From an uncultured Haloferula sp. (GTDB lineage: Bacteria > Verrucomicrobiota > Verrucomicrobiia > Verrucomicrobiales > Akkermansiaceae), in the NCBI GenBank assembly GCA_965652295.1, contig CBFGTS010000002.1:288001-352000 (forward strand): a DNA stretch of 64,000 bases, read 5' to 3'. This document shows, in pieces, positions 1,295-15,652 of this stretch. Within the stretch, counting starts at the first letter, position 1. Each line of letters starts with the position of its first letter. A program made the position numbers and the translations under genes. The notes beneath the pieces are model-generated. The model saw nothing but the letters and a program-made list of their open reading frames with translations. It had not been told where the DNA came from and made no database searches.

Positions 1295-1939
1295 ATGCAA
1301 CTTCATTACGTCACCAACAAAAGCCACACACGCCTCGAAAAAGACTACTTTCTCCCCAGCCTTCCGGAAGGACTTGTCCCGGTCGAACATGTTTGCTCGA
1401 TTTCCAACGACAGCGGAACCTTCATGAGTTCTGATTTCCTGGAAGTCATCCGCTGGAAAATCAGACAGGTCCTTCAATCACTCGACACCAACGAGGTTCA
1501 GGTGTGGTCGGATGTCGATATCGTCTTCAACTCCTCCCATACGAGAATCGTGCATGAGCTGCAGGGCATGGTGGCGGGAGGCAAGCCACCTCTGGCTTTC
1601 CAACAGGAACACGCCGGCAACCATCGTTTGATCAATGCAGGATTTGTCATCATCCGACCGTGCCCCGAAGTCCGGAATTTCTACCGGATCGTCGATAAAC
1701 TCCTCTCCCTTTCACCCAACAAACACGATCAAGACATCATCAACGATATTTTTCTCGGCGGGGAGTATCTCCACAGCCTCTACGCAACCCTCCCTCCGAA
1801 CTTGTACGCCGCTGAATCCAATCGCGGCCTCGCGCCGGGAAGCCGAATCTACCACGCCAACTGCACCGGGCGTGTCGAAGACAAATATCAGCTACTCGAA
1901 AAAGCCCGCGCCTGTTTCCATAGCATCACGCCACCTTAA
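1295..1939 (+). CDS. Nucleotide-diphospho-sugar transferase (GT77/Nucleotid_trans-like glycosyltransferase)
   Basis: WSDVDIVF (DxD motif), INAGFVIIRP, HDQDIIN and a C-terminal YHANC motif, typical of this GT-A family. Confidence 0.7.
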   Translation: MQLHYVTNKSHTRLEKDYFLPSLPEGLVPVEHVCSISNDSGTFMSSDFLEVIRWKIRQVLQSLDTNEVQVWSDVDIVFNSSHTRIVHELQGMVAGGKPPLAFQQEHAGNHRLINAGFVIIRPCPEVRNFYRIVDKLLSLSPNKHDQDIINDIFLGGEYLHSLYATLPPNLYAAESNRGLAPGSRIYHANCTGRVEDKYQLLEKARACFHSITPP

Positions 1940-1967
1940 AACCAAGCGGATCTCGGAGCACAGGCTG

Positions 1968-2564
1968 TCAGCCGTCGTCAGCAACTCCCTCCCTCCAGAT
2001 CGCAAGCACCCGCGGGTCTCCCTTAATCTCTGAACGCAAGTACTCGTCGGGTTCTCCGAGAAATCTGTCGCAGCAGCTCCGCTCCCAATCGCGCTCGTAA
2101 TCATGCACGAGCACCGCCGCCCCTGAGCGGGCCCGAAACTCGGCCGCAGCGTAGATGCTCTCCTCACGTCCGGGATGACCCGCAGCGTACCCCCGGGGCC
2201 CGTCGACAAGGATTGCATTCCAATCTCGATTCAGATGCTCGATTTGCTTCAGGATCGTGTCGGGATGATCAAGAGGAAACCCTATGCAGCCCCGGTAGGA
2301 CACTTGGATCGTCTCTACCTCACCGTGATGGACCCATTCCGGATCGTCCTCCAAGATGGTAAGGTGTCTGGTGACCTTTTCCCAAAAAGGAGCATCGAAT
2401 CCAGCTCCAAAGACCAACATGTTCCGGTCCCTGACGATACCGGCAACGCGCGCGTATTAATGCGGCGTCATGCTGACTTCGCTCCGGTCTTGGCAAAGTT
2501 TCAGGAACGTCATGAGCTGGACCTCGAATGATTCCATTGGGCTTGGGCTGGATGATTCCTTCAT
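1968..2564 (-). pseudogene. DUF579 (GXM/IRX15, Polysacc_synt_4)-like polysaccharide methyltransferase with an in-frame stop codon
   Basis: ORFs 2457..2720 and 1968..2420 share a frame and are separated by a single TAA at 2457-2459 (...SMTPH*YARVAGIVRDRNMLVFGAGFD). Motifs LVFGAGFDAPFW, WNAILVDGPRGY..PGREESIYAA and LVHDYER resemble plant GXM/IRX15 proteins. The start is ATG 2564 or 2537. Confidence 0.6.
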
Positions 2565-2603
2565 GCATTCTTCAGGAGATTCACCTTCTAAAACGAGGCG
2601 ACA

Positions 2604-2854
2604 CGCTGGCTCGCGAGGTTGTAGCCTTGCTTGATCTGTTCGATCTCCCCCGACCCCTTCAGCCAACGCATGTTCCAGTGCGCCCGAAACGGTCCCAGCC
2701 GATGTAGGGGACCCCCGCATCGCCGCCGTTCTGGCCGTTGGCGCTGATATAACTCAGCTTCACCCCCGGGTGGGCGTAATTGATTTCCACGGAACGATTC
2801 AAGCCCACGTATTCGTAGGCCGCAAGAACGGAAAGATCATCGGTCCGAAGACGC
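2604..2854 (-). pseudogene. Orphan degenerate copy of an internal RHS core segment
   Basis: Near-identical to 5272..5523 of the RHS gene (RLRTDDLSVLAAYEYVGLNR..GDAG.PYIGWDRFGRT), with scattered substitutions and a 1-bp deletion near 2676. Confidence 0.85.
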
Positions 2855-3037
2855 CCAGCGGAATCCCGGGCCTTTCCAGGCGAGGGCCGGGTGTTGAAAC
2901 GTTCGGATGAATGATCACGATCTACTTTCGGGGGCTCTCGCGACAAGAAGCTCCGAGCCGAAACTTGGCATCATTCCCGGATGGCTCGATCATTGCGGTT
3001 GGCTGAAACTATTGGTCGCGTACAGTCCACTTGTAAA

Positions 3038-3559
3038 TTACTTGTCGAAATCTTGATGGGAGCCTCTGTTCTTAATTTTTCCCCGCAACTCGTTTGCCCA
3101 TCGATTTAAATCAGTCCACCATCGGTCCAAATCGGAAGCTCCGTCGATGAAACCAAAACATTCAAAATAGGCATCAATTGCATTTTTTTGATTTTCGCTC
3201 AATCGAACATATCGGTTTGAAGGACCATTTTTTTTAATCAGACAATCCTCCCACCATGCTCGAAAATTCTCCATCCATGTTGCGGTAACGCAATCATAAT
3301 TTTCAAGAGCATACTCTGCAAGAGCAGGCATAAAATACCTTCGCCCATTCGAACTAAGCAAATCCATAAATAGCAATGCCCTTTCATCTTTGCATCTTCC
3401 TTCCACCACATCCTCCCGACTTAATGTTTGCAGGAATTTCTCACCTTCCAAGGACAAAACGCCGCTAACGCTCGTCATTCCTTCTCCAATTGGACGTTCG
3501 CAATCCGAAAAACTTTCTTTCATTTTGCGAATTACTTCTAAATTCGAAATTGCGCTCAT
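3038..3559 (-). CDS. Putative immunity protein for the RHS toxin (DUF6714-like)
   Basis: 173-aa ORF 40 bp downstream of the RHS, on the same strand, and visibly AT-rich like the toxin tip. GRRYFMPALAEYAL resembles the 'F.YYLPA' motif of immunity-like proteins. Confidence 0.65.
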   Translation of the reverse strand: MSAISNLEVIRKMKESFSDCERPIGEGMTSVSGVLSLEGEKFLQTLSREDVVEGRCKDERALLFMDLLSSNGRRYFMPALAEYALENYDCVTATWMENFRAWWEDCLIKKNGPSNRYVRLSENQKNAIDAYFECFGFIDGASDLDRWWTDLNRWANELRGKIKNRGSHQDFDK

Positions 3560-3599
3560 TCTATATTAAAAAATCTCTGACCAGGATTTAGGTACACTT

Positions 3600-6500
3600 T
3601 CACCAAATATCTTTATACAAATCTTGCACAGATTCCTCCTCTCCACAGCACTTTTTGAGTACCACCTCACCACATTTTTTGATTTGATTGGCAGTTCGCC
3701 CCAAGGGCTCTTGGTGGTTCTTGTTGCCACTACCCCAGGGAATCTGATCACAATTCATTGCCATGTATATTGAACGGTTTGCGTTCTCCAAAAGAGCCTT
3801 ACCCATTTTCGCTAAGGCCTCCTTGCATGAGTCCGTTGGACTGCAACCAGAGCTTTTATTACTATCATATTTCTTATAAGCTTCTCTGCAGCTTGCAACG
3901 CGTTTGGCTCGAGCGAGCACTTCAGTAGCATCCCGTCCCTTTTTAATCCAGTCCATTACCTTATCTTTATCAATGCCGGGAACACCATCGATGGCATCAC
4001 TGGCCTCATCAACCGCTGATCGAGCAGCATGTATGGCTCTTGCCCTATTAAAGGCTTCAGATGCTTCGCTGGAAGGTGGATAGTGGGTCGGAACTCTAGC
4101 TTCAAGGGCGTCTGCCCACTTTTCACCGGCCTTGTATCCAAGGTATCCTGCAGCTGGGACTGCAGCCACCCCAGCGGCAACTGTTGCACCGGCTCCTGCT
4201 GCAGCCGCACCTGCGCTGACTGCAGGGAGAGCAATTGTACTCAGCCCGTACTGATCATTCTGGTTAGCCGGCGAATTTTCCACGAATCTGTAAATATTAA
4301 CTCCGCCCTCTTCCCCAATAGGATCCCTGCTCAACCACCTCCCAAGGAACACGTTCAAATACCGGAATCCAAAGTTGTAGTAGCCCGTCTCCCCATCCCG
4401 GAACTGCGCCTTGTAAAGCACTTCCCAATCGTAAGCACTCTCCACCCGCGCATCAAAGCTCCCGCTCAGGAACCTCACATCGCCAAACGCGCTATAACCG
4501 TACCGCTCGACCACTACTCCCGCAGCGTTGGTGATGCCCGTCACGTTGTAGTAGTCATGCAGCGCGTAGTGCGCCTCGGTCACGGGCGTGGTGGAGCCGC
4601 CGCCACCGCTGCTTCCGCTTGACGAGCCGGAGGACGACGAAGGAGGCTCGGGCGTGTGCGTCCACAGCCGCCGCACCAGATCGTCCCGGTAGCGGATGCC
4701 CCAGTCGTAGGTCTTCGACGGTTCGATGGAGCTGCCTTCGCGCTCTTCGACCGGACGCCACTGCTGGTTGTAGTAGCTGTGCGTCACCTGGCCATTAACT
4801 GTTTTGGTGGTGCGGCGGAACAGGCCGTCGTAGTCGTAGCGGATGGTGTCGCCACCACCGGTCACCGTGCTCAGGCGGTTCCATGCGTCCCACTTCAGGA
4901 TCTGCCTGATCGACCAGTTGCCACCGGCCGAGGGCGGGCATTTGGTGACATTCCCTGAGGCGTCGTGGCTCATCCAGGTGCTCGACGGGCTGCCGGGTGG
5001 GTAACCGATCTGGGTGATCTGGTTGGAGGTGTTGTGCACCCGGTCCTGATTGAAGGTCGGGCTGCCGTTCTGGAAGACCTTGTAGTTCTCCCAGTTGCCG
5101 ATCGGATCGTAGTCGAAGGCCTCACCACGGAGCGGCACACCTCCGATGGCGTCGCGGTTCTCGTTGAGCGTCCCGCGCTGACGGCCCACCAACTGCCTCA
5201 GGCCGTCGTACTGGTAGCACTCGTCCTCCTTGGCCAGCGCTGCGGTGGCCACCGGGTTCTCGCGCCACGTCCGCTGGCTCGCCAGATTGTAGCCGTACTT
5301 GATCTGCTCGATCTCCCCCGCGCCCTTCAGCCAACGCATGTTCTGGGTGCGCCCGAAACGGTCCCAGCCGATGTAGGGGTCCCCCGCATCGCCGCCGTTC
5401 TGACCGTTGGCGCTGATGTAACTCAGCTTCACCCCCGGTTGGGCATAATCGATTTCCACGAAACGATTCAAGCCGACGTATTCGTAGGCCGCAAGAACGG
5501 AAAGGTCATCGGTCCGGAGGCGCTCGATCCGCCCGAGCTTCCAGTTCGCTGCCGTAGCGGAACCGTAAACGTAGTCCAGTCTCCGCGCCGAGGGATAAGT
5601 GATCCGGGTCGGCAGGATCCGGTTGTTGAAGCCACTATGGTAGCTGTAGGCAACCTTGGGCGTGCTGCCGGTGACCGCTCCACCGTGGGCCTGCCGGTCA
5701 GCCTCCACCTGGCTCCACGGCGTGTATTCGAAGGCGACCTGGTTGGCGACCGACCCTGCTCCCACCGTGGCGCTGGTGTGGCTGGTGACCTGATGAGGTT
5801 GCCCCTTGGGGGTGTAGGTGGTGCTGATGCGCCGGATCGCGCCATCGATACCCGATGCCAGCGTCGTCACCCGGTCCTGGGTCAGGCGGCCCAGAAGGTC
5901 GTAGTCATACTCGTGCACCGTCGAATTCGGGTCCTCATATCGGACGACCTGCGACTGCCAATTGTAGCGGTACTGGTACTTCCCGTTGTCGGGCATCTGC
6001 TTCTCCTTGAGCAGGCGGTTGCTCGCGAGATCCACACCCGGGGTGCCGCTCACGCCGTAGATCCAATCGGTCACCTCATCGGTCAGCGTGCCGCCGACCC
6101 TCACGGCATTGACCAGCGTCAGCTTCTTGAGCTGGGAATCCGCGTGGTACTGGTAACGGGTGGTCCGGCTTTCGTCGTCGCTGCTGGGACTGGCCTTGTA
6201 GTTCTCGATCAGTTCGGTGCGGCGCCCCATCGCGTCTTCCTTCCAGATCGATTCGATGCCCTGCGGATCCACCATGCCCGAGGGGTCGCCATCGGCCGCG
6301 AAGTTGTAGGTCGTCACCAGCACGGTGCCGCCGCTCGCCGGCGGCTGGGCCGGGCGCACCAGATCGGCTCCGCCGTGGGTGCCGTAATCGGCTTCTTTCC
6401 TCCTCCGCCCGATCCCATCGGACCAGTAGGCGGTGTAGGAGCGTCGTCCTTTTGCCGTACCTACCGGCGCGTTGGGCCCGCCCAAGGGCCCCTTGCCTAC

Positions 6501-9500
6501 CGTCGAATGAAATCGCTCGGTGCGCGCGTACACGGTCAGATTGCTCGCCGGATCGTAAGTGTAGTCCTCCTGTTCATACACCTCATCCCAAGTCACGTCG
6601 TTGGGCGGATTGGTCCCGCCGCCGCCGGTTTCGCCCGACGAACCTCCTCCGAAGAAGGTGTAGCCTCGGCCAATTCTTGAACTCGTATTTTCCGAGGTGA
6701 ATTTCTGGCTGCTGGTCATCGGATAGATCGACATCCCGGACCCGGAGGCATGCGAACCGTAATCATACGACTCCAAAATGAGGGGGATGCCGAGCCTGCC
6801 GTCAGAGACCGTGACCTTCCGCAGCAAATTCGGTCCAGCAGGGTCGGTCGGCGGGTTGTACGTGTAACGCTTGACCTCGCCCTCGCCATCCTTGAGACGG
6901 ACAATGAGATCGCCCGTCGCTTCGGTCGGCGAAACCACCACCGGCTCCGTGAGCATCTCGCCGTTCACCGCGGCCGAGCTTGCGCGGAGCGTGGTGAGGA
7001 AGGCGCTGTTGAACTGACGAAAGCGGTACCAGCGGGCTCCGTTGGAGGTCTGCTCCAGGATGGAGAGAATGGTTTTGCCGCCGGGGTTGCTGTAAATGAT
7101 CTTCTTGTTGCCGTCCGGCCGGGTCTCGACGGTCTTGACCGCCCACGTGTTGACCTGGAAGAGGCTGGGATTGGCGGTGTTCCGGAAATACTGGTAGCCG
7201 TACGGCTTGGCTCCTCCCTGCACCTTCTCCAAGGTGACCCGCCGCTCATCGTCGTACTCGAAGTAGTAATCGCTGTAAGGCTCGAGTTCGGCATCGGTGA
7301 GTAGTTCCGGATCCTCGCCATCCGCCGTCAGCCTGCGGCACCCCTGCGGCCCGACCACGAACTTCAGGCCGTGGAGAAAGCCCTTGGACTCCCCCGTTTC
7401 ATAGTAGCGGTAGAAATTCCGCCGGATTTCCTGGAACGCCGTGCCATTCCACTCTTCCACGATCACGTGCTTGAGGTCGCCCTCCGTGCCTCCGCTCTCA
7501 CCGCTCACGTAGTAGTTGTAGCGGACCCGGCGCAACACCGTGCCGTCCATAATCTGGGTGATCACGGACATCAGGCCGGCTTCTCCCCCGGTGGTATGAT
7601 AGTCGTAGTCAAAGGACACCGTCCGCGTGCCGTCCGACCACGTCACCAGATCCACGCGACCGTCGCCATAGTAGGTCACCAGGCCCTCGTTGCCATACCG
7701 GTTGCTGAATTTCCAGATCTTGCCCCGGAGGTTCTCCGACGCTCCCTGCCCGTAGTAGGTTTTCCTGCTGCCGTCCCCGAGCTCCAAGGTGACCCCATCC
7801 GTGTTGCTCACCAGGCGGCTGCGTCCGCCGAACTGGTTGTCCGCCACACCACCGCTGAAAGGAGCGAACCATTCGCTGGTGTCGGCTCCGGTGACCACCA
7901 CCGACATCTCGCCGGACTCTCCCTGGCCGGTTTGGAAATGGGACAACTGTTCGGAGAGCCAACGCGCCCCGTTGTAGCCGGTGCCGTTGCCGTTCATCCC
8001 ATTGGAGTAGCTGCGCTTCTGCCCCCAGCGAAATCCCAAGCCTTTCCAGGCGAGGTCCTCCACTTCGTACAGCAGCTCGCCGGTGAAATACCTCACCGGG
8101 TTGTTGCTAGCCTCATCCTGGTTGCAAGAAGCATCACCGTCCGATCCATTTTCGGTTCCGTTCTCGCTTGAGGTCTCACTGACCCCGCCACCCTGCCCGC
8201 CGCACTTGCACCGGGGAGAGGCGGGTTGGCCATAGGATGAGCCTGCGGAACCGCTGCTCCAACCACTGCCCGAGGAACCGCCACTGCCCGAGGAACCGCC
8301 ACTGCCCGAGGAACCGCCGCTGCCCGAGGAACCGCCGCTGCCCGAGGAGCCACCACTGTCCGAGGAGCCGCCGCTGTCCGAGGAGCCGCCGCTGTTCGAA
8401 GAGCCGCCGCTGTCCGAAGAACCGCCGCTGTCCGAGGAGCCACCGCTGGATGAATCCGAGCTGCCGCTGGAACCCGGGTCGGGCGGCTCGTCCGACGACG
8501 AAGAGCCGTTGGTACTTCCCGAGCTGGGCGGGCCAGGAGGAGCCTCTCCTTCCAAGACGACGTAGCGGGCTTTGTTGCGCTCCACTCCGTCATAGAGATA
8601 CTTCACCGCGGCGTCTGTGTTCGGGCCCGTTTCTTTGATCAGATTCCCGCTCGCGTCATACCAGCGGCGGGTTTCGAGGGCTGCTGCGGTCAGCTCCCCC
8701 GTGGTTTCATCCGCACCCTGCACTTCCTCAAGGTACACCTGGCCCTGCTCGTTGTAGTGAGTGACCTGGCGTCCCAGATAATGGCCGGCCCCGACTTGAT
8801 CCCGATAGCGCACCACTTCGGTCAATTGACCCTGCCGGTCGTGTACGTAGGTCGTGAGCAGATCCACGGTCCCGTCGGTCGTCTGGCTCAGCCTCAGACG
8901 GTCACGGAAATCATACTCCATGATCTCGATCCGGTCTTCCGCATCGTCCGAACTGACCTTCCGCGTCACCCGGGTCAGGTTCCCATTTCCTCCCGGCACC
9001 CCGTTGTCGTACTCGTATTCCTCCACCGGGAGCATGTTGTTGGAAGTGCTTGAGCCTCCCGCCGGATCGGAATCGGTCGCGCCGTCGTCGTCGGTGCCCA
9101 CCCACTTCGAGGTCACGAGCCCGCGCGCATCATAGACACTCCGGGTGATGGTTCCCGTCTCGTCCTTGACCCGGACAAGACGGTCCATTTCGTCGTATTT
9201 GTATTCAACGAGTTCGTAGTTGTCGTGCTGCGTTCCCTCCCCGCTGTCCGGGATCTTGTGGTAGATCTTCCTGCTCAGCAGCTTGCCCCAAGGGTCGTAG
9301 TGGTTGGTCGTCCACTTCCTGCGGTTGGAGTAAGCTTTGAGGTTCGAGGCTTCACTGGGAGAAAGAGGGCCGTTGTTCGACTGCCTGACGGCACCGATTT
9401 CCTCCACCACCCGTCCAAACGCGTCCGTGCGCGTGATCGTCACCAAGCCGACCGTCGTGTAGTCGTAGGAACTTCCCGATGCCACCGCGTAGCCGCGCGC

Positions 9501-9911
9501 TTCCCAACGCTCCAAGCTCGGGTCGAAATAGAGATAAAGCTGCACCTGCCGGACCTCCTCCACGACATCCATCACCTCGTGGGGCGGCCCCATTTCAACG
9601 AGAATCCGCCCGAGGTCATCGCGTTCGTAAAGCGTTTCCAAATTCAAGCCTCCGCCAGCCGGGGTGACCCAATTGCCGGGAGCGCCATCCCCATACGGTG
9701 ACGACGTATCCACATCCTCCACCCTCCGCGTCAGGGCACCGGTCAGCGGATCATACTCGTAACTGGTGATGAAGCCACGGGGGGACTTTTCCCAGTTCAG
9801 ACGACCGGACACTCCGAACACCTGCTGCACCTGATCCTGCACCCCGGTTCCTCCTGACCCGGGCGAAACCAAAGGCATCGAAATCCACTTCTCTTGAATC
9901 TGGTAACTCAT
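3600..9911 (-). CDS. RHS/YD-repeat polymorphic toxin (apparently permuted core, Ser/Gly linker, Cys-rich C-terminal toxin)
   Basis: Many YD repeats (YDxxGR), the RHS core end [34 protein letters not shown] (DQYGL at 4242-4256), a DUF6531-like [10 protein letters not shown] at ~8106 and an AT-rich tip. The likely start is ATG 9911 (MSYQIQ); the ORF track extends to TTG 9935. Confidence 0.9.
   Translation of the reverse strand: [2103 protein letters not shown]
8263..8442 (-). repeat. Ten tandem 18-bp units encoding (GGSS[GDN]S)n inside the RHS linker
   Basis: The + strand consensus CC(A/G)CTG(C/T)CCGAGGA(A/G)CC(G/A) is repeated 10 times from 8263. Confidence 0.95.
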
Positions 9912-9947
9912 TTGCTTTAAATCGGTTGAAATCAAAAATCTCCGTTT

Positions 9948-11012
9948 TCAGGCTGCCGAGGAGCTCCTCAGCTCGGCGCATCCCATGGTTCCTTCATTCA
10001 GGGCATGGGCGAACAAACCGTTGAAAGGGTAGCCGATCAGCTCATCGAGCTTCGCTTGACCCACATCCAGCACCGAACTGGACCAGCACGATCGCACCCT
10101 GCCCATCGGAATGGCCTCGTGTGAAATCCCCGGCACCAATTGCATGTCCATTGCTTCGCGCGCGATCAGCTGAAGCCACTTGCGCAGCTCCTCGTCACTT
10201 CCCACGCACGCATCGAGACCGATGTCCTCAAGGGTTCCTTCCTTCAGGTTGTTGCCGAAATGCACGAACTGCTTCAGCCGCTCCGCATCGTGCGAGCCCG
10301 GCTCCACCACAACGAAAGGCAGCCGCGAACTGAACCCGGAGAAATTCCACCACAGGCGAGGGTTGGTGCGTCCTGAAATGTTGCTCGAACCGGCTTCCTG
10401 GCCCGCCATCCACCACGTGGGCGCATAGGTCCGCCATCTTCCGGCCTCATGCGCCAACCCAAGCTGGTGGTCGATATGCCACCCGCCCCTCGCGATGTAG
10501 TCCGGCGCATAGCAGACGTGCTGCTGAAACTCCACCATGGCCCGCCGGTGCAGCGCGAACGCGTGGGTCCGGTTCACATTCGCGCAGCGAAACACGTAAG
10601 AGCTGCCGAGCACAGGATCGGGATCGCGCAGGTGCTGGCCACCCAGATAGATCTGCCCCCAGTCCCCGGGAACCTCGTGCATCAACCGCCAGAGAAGCTC
10701 CGGCGAGCGCTCGTGGAACACCACGTCATCCTCCAGAACCAGATAATTATCAATGCCATCCATGATCGCATCCTGGACGATTCTGACATGCGTCTGAAGA
10801 CATCCCCAGGCTCCGTTCCCGCCCTTGAAATACGCCGGCGGGGGACTCCAATCGCCCGACAGGGCACGGACCCAATGCAACCGGCTCACGTCCGCAATAT
10901 CCACTTCCGCCAGATGCTTCTCCAGTCTCGCGCGACGATCCTTCTTATAGGGAAGGTTGATCACGTACACCCGCTCGAAGTAGTCCGTAAGCCTTCCTCT
11001 TCTTGACATCAT
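9948..11012 (-). CDS. Glycosyltransferase family 25 (Lex2A/LPS-type) with C-terminal extension
   Basis: VYVINLPYKKDRRARL, GAWGCLQTH, LVLEDDV and THAFAL motifs. The stop lies 36 bp upstream of the RHS ATG. Confidence 0.8.
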   Translation of the reverse strand: MMSRRGRLTDYFERVYVINLPYKKDRRARLEKHLAEVDIADVSRLHWVRALSGDWSPPPAYFKGGNGAWGCLQTHVRIVQDAIMDGIDNYLVLEDDVVFHERSPELLWRLMHEVPGDWGQIYLGGQHLRDPDPVLGSSYVFRCANVNRTHAFALHRRAMVEFQQHVCYAPDYIARGGWHIDHQLGLAHEAGRWRTYAPTWWMAGQEAGSSNISGRTNPRLWWNFSGFSSRLPFVVVEPGSHDAERLKQFVHFGNNLKEGTLEDIGLDACVGSDEELRKWLQLIAREAMDMQLVPGISHEAIPMGRVRSCWSSSVLDVGQAKLDELIGYPFNGLFAHALNEGTMGCAELRSSSAA

Positions 11013-11148
11013 GCTCCACCCTCTATTGGACTTCGCTGCGTAGTGGCAAGAGTTTTTGATGAAGCCACTGAGATTTCATCATCCTGACCCACCACCATCA
11101 CCTCGGCACAAGCCCGCCGTCTTCCTCATAACTCTCGATTTATCAATC

Positions 11149-12051
11149 ATGTTTGAAAGTTACAAAATTGTTGCAGTCACCTGCTACGGGCGCCGCCGCT
11201 ACACCGAGCTTTTGACCCGCTACACCCGCAGCTGCCCCCTCATCGACACCCATCAGCTTTGGATCAACACCCGGAACCCCGACGATCTGGCAGAAGCGGA
11301 GCTCTACTGCAAGCAAGACCCTGGATTCTTCGAGCTCGTTCATTGTGAAGTGCCTTACGACCAGCTTTCCGGGTCGCACCGGCTCGCCTGCTTCTATCCT
11401 CTGCTCCCCTCCGCTCCGGACACCATCTACCTCCGGTTTGACGACGATATCGTCTGGATGGCGGACGACGCCGTTGAAAAGCTTCTAACCGCGAGGTTGG
11501 CAAACCCTCTGCCGCTCCTTGTGTACGCCAACACGATCAACAACTCGCTTTGCTCGCACCTCCATCAACGCCGGGGAGCACTGCCAGCGGTCCCGCACCT
11601 TGAATACGACTGCCTCGGCGCGAATTCCTGGCGAAACGCCGAAACCGCGAAGGTGATCCATCGCCTCTTCCTCGATCGTTTGGAATCCGGAGAACCCCCG
11701 ACGGACTTCCTTTTCGACAACCATTCCCTGGAATCCTACCAACGATGCTCCATCAACTGCATGGCTTGGTTCGGACGCGACAATCACGCCCTGAGATCCG
11801 GCGTCGCCCGGGACGAGGAGCACGAGCTTTCCTGTGTCATCCCGAGGCTGCTATGCCGGCCGAACCTCATCGCAGGCGATGCTTTGGTCAGTCACTTCGC
11901 CTACCACACCCAGAGGGCGTCGTTGGAACAGGATTCCTCGTTCCTCGAACGATACCGGGCTCTTGCGCCACCCCGGGCACCTGCCGGTCCTCGTCCGAAA
12001 CCTCGGAACCATCCCACGCTCCCTCTTCGTCGCGAAAGCGCCGCCGCCTGA
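11149..12051 (+). CDS. Putative GT-A-fold glycosyltransferase-like protein
   Basis: GRRRYTELL, YLRFDDDIVW (DxD-like), ANTINN, SINCMAW and VSHFAY motifs. Start placed at ATG 11149 (MFESYKIVAV). Confidence 0.55.
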   Translation: MFESYKIVAVTCYGRRRYTELLTRYTRSCPLIDTHQLWINTRNPDDLAEAELYCKQDPGFFELVHCEVPYDQLSGSHRLACFYPLLPSAPDTIYLRFDDDIVWMADDAVEKLLTARLANPLPLLVYANTINNSLCSHLHQRRGALPAVPHLEYDCLGANSWRNAETAKVIHRLFLDRLESGEPPTDFLFDNHSLESYQRCSINCMAWFGRDNHALRSGVARDEEHELSCVIPRLLCRPNLIAGDALVSHFAYHTQRASLEQDSSFLERYRALAPPRAPAGPRPKPRNHPTLPLRRESAAA

Positions 12052-12096
12052 GAGGGGCGATCCCCGTGTCATTCGTTCATTCTGTCTCCATCCATC

Positions 12097-13551
12097 ATGC
12101 AACACGTCGTCGTCCAGCAGCACCGGGGAGCCCGAACCTACCAATTCACCCACTGCTACGAAAACCGGGGCGAGGCGGTTCGCAACCTCGTCGAGGACAC
12201 GGTCGAGCGGTTCAATATCCGCGATGATTTCGAATTCTCGGTCTGCACCGAGGACCACTCGCATCCCGGCTGCGACTACCACTTTTCGGTCAGAAAGGGC
12301 GAGTATGCCGTCTCCTTTCCGCAGTTCCTTTTCGATGGCTGGCCGCATTGCGGGATCGCTAACTACGAGGAGGTCCGGAAATCGCTCACCGATGGTCCGC
12401 CGGACAGCAACAAGCTGGGATGGATCGGCAATCCCACCACTCATTGGAGACGCCGCAAGTTTCTGAACGATTTCTCCAACGCTGATTTCGCCGAAGGCAT
12501 TTCCAACATTTGGAACACCAGGGAAAGGGACGCTCAGTGGAGGAACACGCCGACCTACCTCTCGCTTCCCCAACAGATACAGCGCTGGAAATACCTCCTC
12601 GACATTGAAGGAGTCGGCTGGTCAGCCCGCCTCCCTCTTCTCCTGTCCTCCCCCAGGATCGTATTCATCGTCGAGCGGGACTGGGTGGAATGGTGGCATG
12701 AGCACTTGGTGCCGTGGAAGCATTTCGTTCCAATCGATCGCGATCTATCTTCGCTCGAAGAGGCCTACCACGCCGTCGAGTCGGACGAGGCACTCCAGAA
12801 GCACATTTCGCTCCATCAACGTGAATTCGCCCTGCGGCACCTCACCCGCGATGCGGCCCTTGAGCGGATCCGGCACCTTCTGTCGCAACGACTACAACCG
12901 CCGAGCGCCAAGGCGGCCACGTCCAAGAACGGTCAACCGCGAAGGAACCGGCTTACTCCTCGCAGCGTCGACACACGGGTCCGCTCGTGGAAAGATGTGC
13001 TGGAAGAGCAAGCCAAACCCTTCCGACTCGTCGTCGCATCCTACTCGGAGAATCTGGATTGGACGCAGGCGGTCCAAGGGCGTGTTTGTATTTATGATGC
13101 CTCGGGTCGATCTGATTTTCCGGGGGCCATCCCAATCGAGAACCGGGCAAGGGAAGCCAGCCAATACCTGCACCACATCATCACCCACTACCCTGATTTC
13201 CACGAGTGGGAGATCTTCGTGCAGGGAAACCCCTTCGATCACTGCAACGATCCCATCCTCCGTGGTGAGCCATTGCCGGAGAACTGGACACCTTTTCAGC
13301 CCTTGGGAAGAATGGCGGTGTTCAATCCACACCACTGTGCGCACGACCGGTTCGCGGCGCAATTCGCGCGCGAATGGTTCGGTGGGATACCGCGCAACCT
13401 CCACTGGGTGGTCGGCGCGCAGTTCGCGGTTCACCGGAAGGTGATCTTGAACCGCTCCCTCAGCTATTGGCAACGCCTTCATGCCAAGACCTGTGAGGAA
13501 CACAAAACGTCGCCATGGGCTTTGGAGCGCCTCTGGTTCCGGATTTTCTGA
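12097..13551 (+). CDS. GT90/CAP10-like glycosyltransferase fused to a DUF3431 domain
   Basis: N-half: LGWIGN, WKYLLDIEGVGWSARL, LVPWKHFVPI (CAP10/GT90). C-half: LVVASYSENLDW, NRAREASQYLHHIITHY, IFVQGNPFDH, GAQFAV, ALERLW (DUF3431). Confidence 0.7.
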   Translation: MQHVVVQQHRGARTYQFTHCYENRGEAVRNLVEDTVERFNIRDDFEFSVCTEDHSHPGCDYHFSVRKGEYAVSFPQFLFDGWPHCGIANYEEVRKSLTDGPPDSNKLGWIGNPTTHWRRRKFLNDFSNADFAEGISNIWNTRERDAQWRNTPTYLSLPQQIQRWKYLLDIEGVGWSARLPLLLSSPRIVFIVERDWVEWWHEHLVPWKHFVPIDRDLSSLEEAYHAVESDEALQKHISLHQREFALRHLTRDAALERIRHLLSQRLQPPSAKAATSKNGQPRRNRLTPRSVDTRVRSWKDVLEEQAKPFRLVVASYSENLDWTQAVQGRVCIYDASGRSDFPGAIPIENRAREASQYLHHIITHYPDFHEWEIFVQGNPFDHCNDPILRGEPLPENWTPFQPLGRMAVFNPHHCAHDRFAAQFAREWFGGIPRNLHWVVGAQFAVHRKVILNRSLSYWQRLHAKTCEEHKTSPWALERLWFRIF

Positions 13552-13605
13552 CCCACCGTCCTCCTCATTCGCCGGGTTGGAAGCCCCGGATCAGCTCCCG
13601 CCACC

Positions 13606-15258
13606 ATGAATTTCGCGATCATTCTCCACGGGCTCGTTCACCGGAGCCTTCCCCTCGTCGCCAGCAGCTTCAACGACAACCTCCTGAACCCGTTGCAGCC
13701 GCTCGGTTCCACCGACGTTTACTTCCATTCATGGGATACGGACCGGCTCGACAATCCACGGACAGGCGAGAATGACGTCCGCATCGAGCCTGGCTCGATC
13801 GACCGGTTTTTGGGAATGGCACAAGGTCGTCTCGAATCTCGATCGGCTTTCGACGCCACCATCGATTGGCAACCTTTGCTCGAGAGAAACCCGATGCGTC
13901 ACTGCACCGATAGTGAGGCAGCCGCACGAGTCACCTTGATGAACTACGTTCGGTCCCTCGAATCGCTACGCCGAGCATGGGAAATCTACCTGGAGAGGCG
14001 TGAAGTCCGACACGACTGGATCATCGTCACCCGGGCAGATCTCCGCTTTCTCCACCCTGTCTTTCTCCCAACTCTGGATGCCGGATTTTGCCCACCACCG
14101 GGAAGAGCCGACAGCGCCCCCCAAGACTCCACTCTCTGGGTCCCCGCATTTCAGGATTGGGGAGGTTTCAATGACCGGTTCGCGATCGGGCGGGAGCGGG
14201 AAATGGCAACCTATTCCCGCCGCTTTGATTTTGCCTTGCAATGGATCCGGGAAGGAAAAGGAGGGAATCCCCAAAGAATCCTGAAGCACTACCTTGAGTC
14301 GAAGGCCATTTCGACCCAGCAGATCGACCTCGCTTTCCAACGGGTCCGCGCCACAGGAGAAATCGCAGGATTCGACCGCGAGCTGAGTCCTGCCGACATT
14401 CCAGCGCCTGAACCTGCATCTTCCACAAAGAAGCAGCACCGAACCCACATTCCTGAATCCTTCGGCGACGCCATGGGCAAAACTCCACCGCAAACCCGGG
14501 ATCGATTCATCGTTCTCGCTCGTGAAGCCGGCCCGGCTGCCGGAAAGCTCGCGCGGATGTTGGCATACTGGGGAAAGGCGGAGATCGTCATTGATCGAGT
14601 AGAGGACCCTCCACCGTGCCCGGCCCCGTCTTCCCACGAGCCGGAGATCGTGTGGATCCCAGATGCCGAAGCCCGGGGGTTCGAGGGGCTGATGAGCGAC
14701 TCCGGTCCTTTCCCTGCCGTGACCGCTTGGTCCCGGGCTCTCGCTCACCTCAACCGCACCCTTTCAGACGGAGAATCGGTCTGGTTCGTTGAAGACGATG
14801 TCGCAGGGGACACGGAATCCTTCGACTGCCTAATCCGGCAAACCCAGGCATCGCTGCCCGATCTTGCCGCAACCACCATCAGGAGGCAGCAAGAAGACCC
14901 GGACTGGCCCTACTGGGGTTACTGTGAGGAGTTCTTCGACCATCATGTCCGCGCGTTCCAACCTCTATGCCGTCTGAGTTCACGCCTAATCCGGAAGGCA
15001 CTCGATTTTCGCGCACAACACGGGAGGTTCACCTTTCACGAGGTTCTTTTCCCCTCCGTCGCTCTCGAGCATTCCATGAGCCTCTTCTGCTGGGAAGATC
15101 ATCCCAGCCTGAAGCCCCTGCTTCACTCATTCCAGTATCGCCCCCTCGTCTCATCGATCTCCCGTGGGATCAGTCATCCCGTAAAGGACTCTTCAACCCT
15201 CTCAGCGATCTGCGATCTTCCATCCCCAAAGATGACTGTCTCTGGATGCGTCAGTTGA
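13606..15258 (+). CDS. Two-domain glycosyltransferase-like hypothetical protein
   Basis: Domain 1: AIILHG..RSL, DVYFHSW, IIVTRADL, NDRFAIG. A Pro-rich linker follows. Domain 2: WFVEDDV, CRLSSRL, FHEVLFPS, HPVK. Confidence 0.5.
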   Translation: MNFAIILHGLVHRSLPLVASSFNDNLLNPLQPLGSTDVYFHSWDTDRLDNPRTGENDVRIEPGSIDRFLGMAQGRLESRSAFDATIDWQPLLERNPMRHCTDSEAAARVTLMNYVRSLESLRRAWEIYLERREVRHDWIIVTRADLRFLHPVFLPTLDAGFCPPPGRADSAPQDSTLWVPAFQDWGGFNDRFAIGREREMATYSRRFDFALQWIREGKGGNPQRILKHYLESKAISTQQIDLAFQRVRATGEIAGFDRELSPADIPAPEPASSTKKQHRTHIPESFGDAMGKTPPQTRDRFIVLAREAGPAAGKLARMLAYWGKAEIVIDRVEDPPPCPAPSSHEPEIVWIPDAEARGFEGLMSDSGPFPAVTAWSRALAHLNRTLSDGESVWFVEDDVAGDTESFDCLIRQTQASLPDLAATTIRRQQEDPDWPYWGYCEEFFDHHVRAFQPLCRLSSRLIRKALDFRAQHGRFTFHEVLFPSVALEHSMSLFCWEDHPSLKPLLHSFQYRPLVSSISRGISHPVKDSSTLSAICDLPSPKMTVSGCVS

Positions 15259-15401
15259 TAGATCGAGGGCATCACGGCTCCATTTGGCACGCATCAGATG
15301 AACATGGATCTCTTGCACAGAGAAACGCAGAGGATTGAGACGATCCCTCGACCTCAACTCTTCCACGATTTCGTCACCACTTCAGCTGCCAGGGGGGAAA
15401 G

Positions 15402-15488
15402 AAGAGCGGCGGAATGTGTCCGCCGTGAGTGGTCCCTGTCGGCTGTCTTTCCCGGTGACTCCCGGCGAACGCGTTTCGCCGCTCCTTT
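15402..15488. repeat. Inverted REP-like doublet
   Basis: AAGAGCGGCGGAATGTGTCCGCCG ... CGGCGAACGCGTTTCGCCGCTCCTT. Each unit is a hairpin and the two are inverted relative to each other. Confidence 0.5.
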
Positions 15489-15652
15489 TAGCGATCCGCG
15501 ATCTCCCCCTCCTGCCGAGCGAGTTCGCGGCGAATTCGTTGTCATCCGGAGGCTGACGGATAGAGAATCGAACCAAGGCGTTATCTAGGATGCCGGAGGT
15601 CCTCTTCGACTCAAAAGATTGACCCAGCGTGAACGTTGAGGGATCACAAGCC

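Follow-up and report, generated by a model that had tools for sequence, protein, structure and literature searches.

A predicted RHS toxin with a permuted shell and serine-rich tracts, encoded among glycosyltransferase genes in Verrucomicrobiota

Introduction

Why does a gene for a predicted RHS toxin lie amid genes for glycosyltransferases (GTs) that resemble eukaryotic enzymes, and what would these enzymes modify? The question is raised by an island (positions 1295 to 15258) in a 64,000-nucleotide stretch, hereafter the window, of contig CBFGTS010000002.1 (assembly GCA_965652295.1, positions 288,001 to 352,000) from an uncultured Haloferula species of the Verrucomicrobiota. A first-pass annotation, made from the letters alone, had proposed either that a dedicated pathway glycosylates serine/glycine-rich inserts of the RHS protein or that a toxin is linked to a surface-glycan module. 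Sequence comparisons indicate that a toxin-plus-GT system with a permuted shell is real and recurring, and they make O-glycosylation of the RHS serine tracts in the cytoplasm, by the co-encoded soluble GTs, the explanation that we regard as rather probable.

Adhesins and flagellins are known to have glycosylation loci of their own. No such locus for polymorphic toxins was found described in open-licence full text, and neither was, supplements aside, a link between RHS and GT genes or a permuted RHS protein. PMC8920140 and bioRxiv 2024.08.21.608814 mention RHS and GT genes of Akkermansia, separately; in the main text of PMC3482391, GTs appear as toxin domains and the term 'serine-rich' is absent.

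Results

Segment order of the RHS shell

The RHS gene, present in a single copy in the genome, encodes a protein with the following parts:

3600..9911, minus strand: RHS protein of 2103 residues, with a permuted shell (B-linker-A-linker-C) followed by the core and a C-terminal domain (open reading frame (ORF), Pfam and NCBIfam)
8547..9911, minus strand: shell segment B, residues 1-455, the middle segment in canonical relatives, putatively about 1.1 ring
8106..8549, minus strand: Ser/Gly tract 1, 148 residues (455-602), with a Cys motif at its end, predicted to be disordered
6663..8105, minus strand: shell segment A, approximately residues 603-1083, with a DUF6531-like N-terminal plug and the first ring
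6603..6650, minus strand: Gly-rich linker (tract 2), 16 residues (1088-1103), between A and C
4242..6602, minus strand: shell segment C and RHS-associated core, with autoproteolysis-like motifs (DPIG...DQYGL, residues 1863-1890)
4575..4658, minus strand: Ser/Gly loop insert in segment C (tract 3), 28 residues (1752-1779)
3600..4241, minus strand: C-terminal domain of 213 residues, the predicted toxin, with a GC content of 50%, a hydrophobic Ala/Gly stretch and a Cys-rich tip

DUF6531, the usual entry into an RHS protein, is found only at residue 604, behind 455 residues of shell. When the segments (B, 1-455; A, 600-1083; C, 1104-1880) were mapped on the 120 listed of 128 homologues, 105 had the order A-B-C, three had B-A-C and 12 were partial; the canonical arrangement, A-B-C with a leader ahead of A, is not that of the window protein. 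Genome G025 contributed an additional B-A-C case. A quick tree built from 41 B segments groups the five B-A-C proteins in one clade (98% support in the Shimodaira-Hasegawa-like approximate likelihood ratio test, SH-aLRT), next to a sister group (87%) of two A-B-C proteins whose N-terminal leaders are long and poly-Ser. A second metagenome scan yielded 45 loci and no further B-A-C protein, and a metagenome scan with a single protein found nothing.

Misassembly was ruled out as the cause of the B-A-C order, which recurs in four other proteins or genomes; contigs of run X2 bridge the A/C and the GT25-RHS junctions, and none of those listed spans the repeat linker. An origin by gene conversion between A and B was dropped, because the two segments are not detectable duplicates (hhalign probability 14%).

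Canonical relatives commonly carry a Ser-rich run and a Cys motif immediately before A, at the N-terminus. Because tract 1 has the same anatomy, it appears by sequence to correspond to the former N-terminal Ser leader of these relatives, now internal; a Ser-rich tract is found at the equivalent junction also in P0001, P0002 (encoded by genome G158), P0009 and the protein of G025. We infer that B was placed ahead of the old leader once, perhaps via tandem duplication and deletion. By the same comparison, the 16-residue tract is the new bridge from A to C, at the place where canonical relatives carry B. Thus, the three Ser/Gly inserts originally described are all present, but tracts 1 and 2 are junctions of the permutation and not insertions into a normal shell.

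Composition of the serine tracts

Tract 1 contains 56 Ser and 43 Gly in 148 residues and holds the most Ser-rich 20-residue window of the 3336 called ORFs of the genome, so it does not reflect a genome-wide bias. A density of at least 10 Ser per 20 residues is reached by just two of these ORFs, a count that misses ORFs with low coding scores. Tract 1 is the main candidate acceptor of a glycan. Of 147 proteins collected, 35 carry poly-Ser tracts, and a single shell often has them as inserts in several of its hairpin loops; P0009 has a Ser-rich insert in the loop equivalent to tract 3. Hydropathy analysis revealed neither a signal peptide nor a hydrophobic N-terminus in the window protein.

Structural models of the permuted shell

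A model of residues 1-1200 was obtained with a predicted local distance difference test score (pLDDT) of 78 and a predicted template modelling score (pTM) of 0.79, and residues 456-559 were modelled as disordered (pLDDT below 50). The modelled residues 562-1096 superpose on residues 273-690 of RhsA (7Q97; Z 25.4, root-mean-square deviation (rmsd) 3.0, 375 aligned), and the region superposed by segment A is the plug plus first ring of RhsA. A sequential end-to-end alignment to Rhs structures gave an rmsd of about 41 Å, as expected if the spatial order differs from the sequence order.

Folded as two chains, A and B scored 0.73, compared to 0.00 for the best control, with a contact agreement of at least 82%, a partner pLDDT of at least 86 and contacts in register (A377-B308, A410-B335). 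The mark applied to this score was passed by 116 of 157 solved pairs and by 2 of 215 mismatched pairs; since each chain is one half of a single canonical protein, similarity to solved shells may account for this result. The model can be read as having about 410 residues per ring, so that B would comprise about 1.1 ring, its ends would lie near enough for a 16-residue bridge, and the long tract would run outside the cage. Together, the models suggest that the permuted shell retains its ring stacking, with a bias toward canonical stacking because the underlying alignments are mostly of canonical relatives.

Glycosyltransferase genes at loci of this RHS family

The RHS type of the window is present in 18 of 301 genomes. 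Four of the 17 genomes other than its own contained fragments or short contigs, and 13 had a full RHS gene with flanks. GTs flank the RHS gene in 12 of these 13 assessable relatives, the exception being G063, with no GT within the 12 kb fetched.

A genome scan of Verrucomicrobiota and Planctomycetota covered the best 80 of 579 stretches and at least 69 loci, of which 29 were kept because a sufficient part of the RHS gene was covered and the upstream flank reached at least 4 kb or a GT was visible; with L133 added and three duplicates dropped, 30 assessable loci were counted. Among the 347 neighbouring ORFs of the scan loci, 143 were searched with Pfam, and all were compared by BLAST with confirmed GTs. 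A GT was found within 8 kb at 22 of the 30 family loci (21 by Pfam alone), compared to 3 of 17 loci in the same phylum with RHS/YD genes of other types (2 by Pfam alone; 18 control loci, 17 with flanks, 72 of 125 neighbours searched with Pfam). The Fisher p value of 3e-4 is overstated, since kin are not independent. Other RHS loci were chosen as control because the GT background of the own genome (3.6%), obtained with seeds from RHS loci, understates the general GT density. One of the control loci with a GT resembles a polysaccharide cluster with a flippase-like gene. The neighbourhood survey that had been proposed at the outset therefore revealed that the RHS relatives are far more often flanked by GTs than other RHS types; paralogues of three island genes occur in this genome without RHS, though next to a small GGSS-repeat protein.

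The presence of GTs also differs with the serine content of the RHS protein. With a poly-Ser locus defined by at least 10 Ser in 15 residues, GTs were present at 14 of 15 poly-Ser family loci versus 8 of 15 others (p 0.035, again with kin that are not independent). At metagenome loci with flanks, BLAST detected GT homologues at 6 of 6 distinct poly-Ser loci versus 3 of 9 without such tracts; two L155 genes in this poly-Ser set had no Pfam match at 1e-5.

Several loci deserve separate description. A gene for a tetratricopeptide repeat (TPR)-GT41 protein, OGT-like, lies immediately upstream of a family RHS gene (L187:4554-6428). Contig G158:C11 (L030, L031, L063) contains an array of GT25 and permuted RHS genes with several orphan tips among phage-like genes, and further GTs about 14 kb downstream. 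Two genes of the tubulin family and one TPR gene (L097:6200-8940), which we take to be BtubA/B/C-like, lie upstream of an RHS fragment.

Organization of the island

The other genes of the island are:

9948..11012, minus strand: GT25 (Pfam), member of the RHS-linked clade, soluble by hydropathy
11149..12051, plus strand: GT2-like protein of 300 residues, soluble, recognized by language-model features alone
12097..13551, plus strand: GT90 and DUF3431, soluble (Pfam; solved-structure match)
13606..15258, plus strand: two-domain protein of 550 residues with 789 relatives, putatively a GT, as judged by neighbouring genes and a conserved EDD motif
3038..3559, minus strand: putative immunity gene, DUF6714-like, 173 residues, GC content 41%
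2604..2854, minus strand: RHS remnant, a degenerate orphan with a frame change and without a toxin tip
1968..2420, minus strand: GXM/IRX15 (DUF579) glycan-methyltransferase-like ORF (Pfam), probably truncated
1295..1939, plus strand: GT77-like nucleotide-diphospho-sugar transferase, convergent on the RHS unit (Pfam)

The ORF check agreed with the gene order and spacing of the first-pass annotation. GT25 (PF01755, E 2e-7, 31.4 bits versus a cut-off of 24) ends 36 nt before the RHS start codon at 9911, and the RHS gene is followed on the same strand by the putative immunity gene after a gap of 40 nt, the RHS remnant (92% identical to 5272-5523 within the RHS gene) and the GXM-like gene (PF21729, 1e-15), with the GT77-like gene (PF03407, 9e-9) converging on the far end. 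The DUF6714 match of the 173-residue protein is slightly below the Pfam cut-off. In the GXM-like gene, a likely upstream ATG is followed four codons later by an in-frame stop at 2457-2459 (window positions 2457-2471), so that the gene is probably truncated, a probable pseudogene or a case of internal restart.

Three divergent genes had been labelled GT-like. The label holds for ORF 12097-13551, which passes Pfam (GT90 1e-21, DUF3431 1e-12), but the other two matched no family in Pfam or NCBIfam. The 300-residue protein resembles GT2-like clusters in language-model features (0.98) and has a 56% paralogue in a second GT cluster of the same genome; the 789 relatives of the 550-residue protein include none in a named family, and profile searches of PDB and Pfam returned no family for it.

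Hydropathy revealed no signal peptide or membrane helix in the GTs of the island. The absence of flippase and polymerase families among the island ORFs, stated earlier, was borne out by Pfam; SecA2/SecY2 and GtfA/B families were also not matched among them (Pfam, NCBIfam). Promoter and terminator scans of the locus gave chance-level results. The core genes flanking the island lack synteny within the genus, so that no empty insertion site can be defined.

The GT genes have a GC content of 53-60%, compared to 64% for the rest of the window, and multi-copy repeats border the island on both sides. The repeat at 1042-1241, of 200 bp, has relatives on at least five other contigs and is skipped exactly by a contig of run X8; it looks like an insertion of the miniature inverted-repeat transposable element type that is missing from some strains. 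The repeat at the right edge, 15353-15495, has about 10 related copies in the genome.

Identity and relatives of the glycosyltransferases

The EDD motif of GT25 (E94-D95-D96) is invariant in 15 of 15 sequences. Among 300 genomes, 13 full-length relatives of GT25 were found, of which the five closest (42-61%) all adjoin this RHS type. In a quick tree, the RHS-linked group and a sister group are split at 100%, and the three GT25s adjoining permuted RHS genes form a clade with 95% SH-aLRT support; one GT25 clade remains beside RHS genes of three RHS subclades. GT25 was the only GT found directly adjoining RHS across relatives, the others being variable, and by these comparisons it is the best candidate for a dedicated transferase. 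Against solved structures, its profile matched procollagen galactosyltransferase 1 with an E value of 5e-12, compared to 0.02 for a bacterial GT25, and the best solved match of GT90 was protein O-glucosyltransferase 1 (POGLUT1; 1e-10 over about 100 residues). A single-sequence AlphaFold model of GT25 (pLDDT 32) was not used. A search of annotated phages with GT25 gave distant partial matches only.

The sister-GT25 operon (L047-L054, in G038, G176, G061, G218, G233, G135, G167 and G182) is conserved in eight genomes and comprises, with labels read from sequence, genes for a kinase-like protein, a peptidase-like protein, GT25, a small ORF and a protein like sigma factors of the extracytoplasmic function (ECF) type; it is possibly a glycosylation-linked signalling module.

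At other RHS loci, the neighbours include GT9 with HldE/GmhA-like genes, GT71, GT60, GT41, GT4 with GT31/32/92, and methyltransferases, and several of these GT families include protein-priming enzymes. Membership of the GT9 neighbours in TibC/Aah was not supported, as no such model was among the NCBIfam matches of seven GT9-like proteins at E 0.001; one of the seven had no PDB match.

A direct connection of a GT with the shell is seen in fusion proteins. The best solved matches of a domain of P0035 are polypeptide N-acetylgalactosamine (GalNAc)-transferases (2e-20). A search with this domain gave 28 hits, 18 of them close, and 12 of the 18 continue via a Cys-rich spacer into an A-B(-C) shell; the GalNAc-transferase-like domain is joined to the RHS part through a Ser-Pro tract in 11 of these 12 fusions. 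Polypeptide GalNAc-transferases prefer Pro-flanked Ser/Thr. The protein of L096 lacks the fusion but begins with a Ser-Pro leader, and a 30% homologue is encoded nearby. In P0124, P0125, P0130 and P0131, the GalNAc-transferase-like domain is fused to subtilase or cadherin-type Pfam domains and not to an RHS shell.

Cassettes beside other serine-repeat proteins

A second GT cluster of the genome contains the paralogues of the three island genes and no RHS gene; it includes DUF707, two GT14-like genes and GT90. Opposite to it lies a divergent ORF of 112 residues (L025:14798-15136; G000:C1, approximately 366.8-367.1 kb) with an RRRFL leader, which we take to be similar to twin-arginine (Tat) signals, GGSS repeats that resemble the RHS tract and a CxxC tail. 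It is a candidate small glycoprotein.

A GT4 gene is divergent from poly-Ser RHS genes in several relatives. Of 301 genomes, 28 contain it, among them 19 of the 52 genomes of genus g3, and it is multi-copy in one genus. Among 18 loci fetched from 54 matches, 8 have a poly-Ser ORF within 10 kb of GT4 (in six cases a large RHS/YD-rich protein of a distant type, in one a non-RHS protein and in one an ORF cut by the contig end), three have RHS pieces and two are at contig ends. Both data sets give the appearance that it is the serine tract, and not the toxin, which the GT cassettes accompany. In g3, tentatively Akkermansia, six loci (L205-L208, L211, L212) encode large RHS/YD-rich proteins with long poly-Ser and Cys leaders and a cassette of GT4 and GT31/32.

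Toxin tip and export

The YD-repeat shell with its RHS-associated core was recognized by PF05593 and, at residues 1806-1890, by TIGR03696. The core motifs, DPIG (1863) and DQYGL (1886; Gln in place of Pro), predict release after L1890, in accordance with the autoproteolytic mechanism at Rhs core motifs described in PMC8636562. The C-terminal tip varies among relatives. The tip of the window protein is weakly similar to Ntox16 (a lead at 0.78), presumably an RNase. The protein is predicted to be an antibacterial toxin with a putative, DUF6714-like immunity gene.

Models for VipA (PF05591), VgrG (PF04717), PAAR (PF05488) and sheath (PF04984) matched nothing in the 98%-complete genome, and matched in control genomes; the first-pass annotation had likewise reported no gene for a type VI secretion system (T6SS), PAAR or VgrG in the island. 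Two family members without GT neighbours, L102 and L108, lie near type II secretin genes, and the protein of L108 begins like a signal peptide; this context suggests a second export route.

Discussion

How can the proximity of a permuted RHS shell and GTs be explained? If the serine tracts of the RHS protein are glycosylated in the cytoplasm, GT25 or GT90 would prime the serines, and extension or capping of the glycan would fall to the remaining GTs and the product of the methyltransferase-like gene. Normal stacking of the shell would be kept, so that the former Ser leader would become an external loop, tethered at both ends. The core protease would cut after L1890, the tip would remain caged, and the glycan would most plausibly shield or solubilize the particle or steer it to target cells.

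Several observations weigh against this explanation. The remaining eight full-length relatives of GT25 form the sister clade, in an operon without RHS, and the GT25-RHS spacing is 125 and 241 nt in two permuted-RHS relatives, which makes the operon coupling look looser there. The GT families vary by locus (GT4, 9, 25, 31/32, 41, 60, 71, 90 and GalNAc-transferase-like), so there is no single conserved priming enzyme. Two GT9 neighbours weakly match heptosyltransferase models of lipopolysaccharide (LPS) synthesis, and GT9 neighbours travel with HldE/GmhA-like genes, which is also compatible with a role in LPS. GTs are present at 8 of the 15 genome-scan loci without a long Ser run, L066, a strongly poly-Ser locus, lacks a Pfam GT at E 1e-5 and has only a weak MptE-like match, and 5 of the 18 GT4 loci have neither RHS nor a poly-Ser neighbour. 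Finally, the match of the tip to Ntox16 (E 0.024) is under the Pfam cut-off.

Part of these observations would be accommodated by the strongest competing explanation, which we nevertheless consider unlikely, namely that the GTs make or alter a glycan of the cell surface, either LPS or capsule, that would act for the toxin as a receptor, a shield or a kin tag, and that the serine tracts are flexible spacers. In addition to the GTs at RHS loci without long Ser runs, it can account for the many neighbours of LPS-type families (GT9 with HldE/GmhA-like genes, GT25), for a number of GTs in the island that exceeds the needs of a short O-glycan, for cassettes that vary like serotype loci and for the failed TibC test of the GT9 neighbours. 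However, it leaves unexplained the fusion of a GalNAc-transferase-like domain to RHS via a Ser-Pro tract and the higher GT frequency at poly-Ser loci, and the best matches of GT25 and GT90 are enzymes that act on proteins. It also leaves unexplained the cassettes adjoining non-RHS Ser-repeat proteins, and for this reason glycosylation of the serine tracts is preferred over a surface-glycan module; of the two options offered at the outset, the first is thus favoured.

It is quite improbable that RHS and GT genes are mobile cargo at shared variable sites without a functional link. The lower GC content of the island, its bordering multi-copy repeats and the transposases, integrases and phage-like genes near many family loci fit such a scenario, but other RHS types are likewise found near transposases and integrases and have GTs at just 3 of 17 loci, one GT25 clade stays with RHS genes of three subclades, and the fusions recur in 12 proteins. 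Slightly less probable still is that the cassette is a general glycosylation system for cellular Ser-rich proteins with RHS as one or an incidental substrate, as suggested by related cassettes flanking non-RHS Ser-repeat ORFs, the multi-copy GT4 of one genus and the cadherin-type and subtilase fusions, because so few called ORFs of the genome are rich in serine (with the caveat on low-coding-score ORFs given above) and every cassette adjoins its candidate acceptor.

Glycosylation of the serine tracts can be compared with several known systems. The window protein shares with the T6SS effectors RhsA (7Q97) and Rhs1 (7PQ5) a YD shell, an N-terminal plug, an RHS core and two DPxG-like motifs, and with Rhs toxin-immunity pairs in general a variable low-GC tip, a downstream candidate immunity gene and an orphan remnant. 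In contrast to these effectors, it is encoded in a genome without a PAAR, VgrG, VipA or sheath match, and its shell is longer, permuted, and accompanied by serine tracts and linked GTs. It also has Asn instead of the Asp before the N-terminal Pro that, according to PMC8636562, Rhs1 needs for cleavage.

Serine-rich repeat proteins (SRRPs) of Gram-positive bacteria (Fap1, GspB, Limosilactobacillus reuteri SRRP) are likewise large serine-tract proteins encoded beside variable soluble GTs, in their case GtfA/B together with accessory Sec components (PMC6973325). The candidate acceptor of the window differs in being a toxin shell without a signal peptide and not a wall-anchored adhesin, and the candidate priming enzyme differs between RHS loci. 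In the TibC/Aah autotransporter heptosyltransferases, one adjacent cytoplasmic enzyme coats the serines of a large exported protein. The GT9-like and ADP-heptose-synthesis-like genes that flank many RHS relatives are reminiscent of this arrangement, but the seven GT9-like neighbours fail the TibC model and the window has no GT9. The enzymes COLGALT1, POGLUT1 and polypeptide GalNAc-transferases are the best solved matches of GT25, GT90 and the fused domain of the relatives, respectively; these matches are distant and partial, and the proteins of the window and its relatives are soluble and bacterial.

Bacterial teneurin-like proteins are toxins with a YD shell that are paired with immunity genes and lack an obvious machinery for delivery, as far as described in the main text of PMC13018210. 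According to the same text, they mostly have signal peptides and other N-terminal domains, unlike the leaderless RHS protein of the window, and the strings 'glycosyl', 'Verrucomicrob', 'Planctomyc' and 'permut' do not occur in it.

A more far-reaching proposal is offered tentatively and is less likely than not to hold. Verrucomicrobiota and Planctomycetota, probably including gut Akkermansia, might produce leaderless RHS glycoprotein toxins with serine loops coated by mucin-type transferases that are swappable and either co-encoded or fused. A strain-specific glycan, and not an injection spike, would then be the label for export, targeting or kin recognition, tip and coat would be two independently shuffled codes, and in one lineage a whole ring segment would have been relocated to the start of the shell.

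As a natural example of a permutation that is not circular, the B-A-C order suggests that synthesis of an RHS cage need not follow the order of its rings, and it bears on how the shell folds around its cargo. If the serine tracts are indeed glycosylated, this would give a role to many orphan eukaryote-like GTs in Verrucomicrobiota and Planctomycetota and would provide small, testable enzyme-substrate pairs, including the self-contained GalNAc-transferase-RHS fusions. It would also offer a handle on how RHS toxins exit the cell and find their targets without a T6SS.

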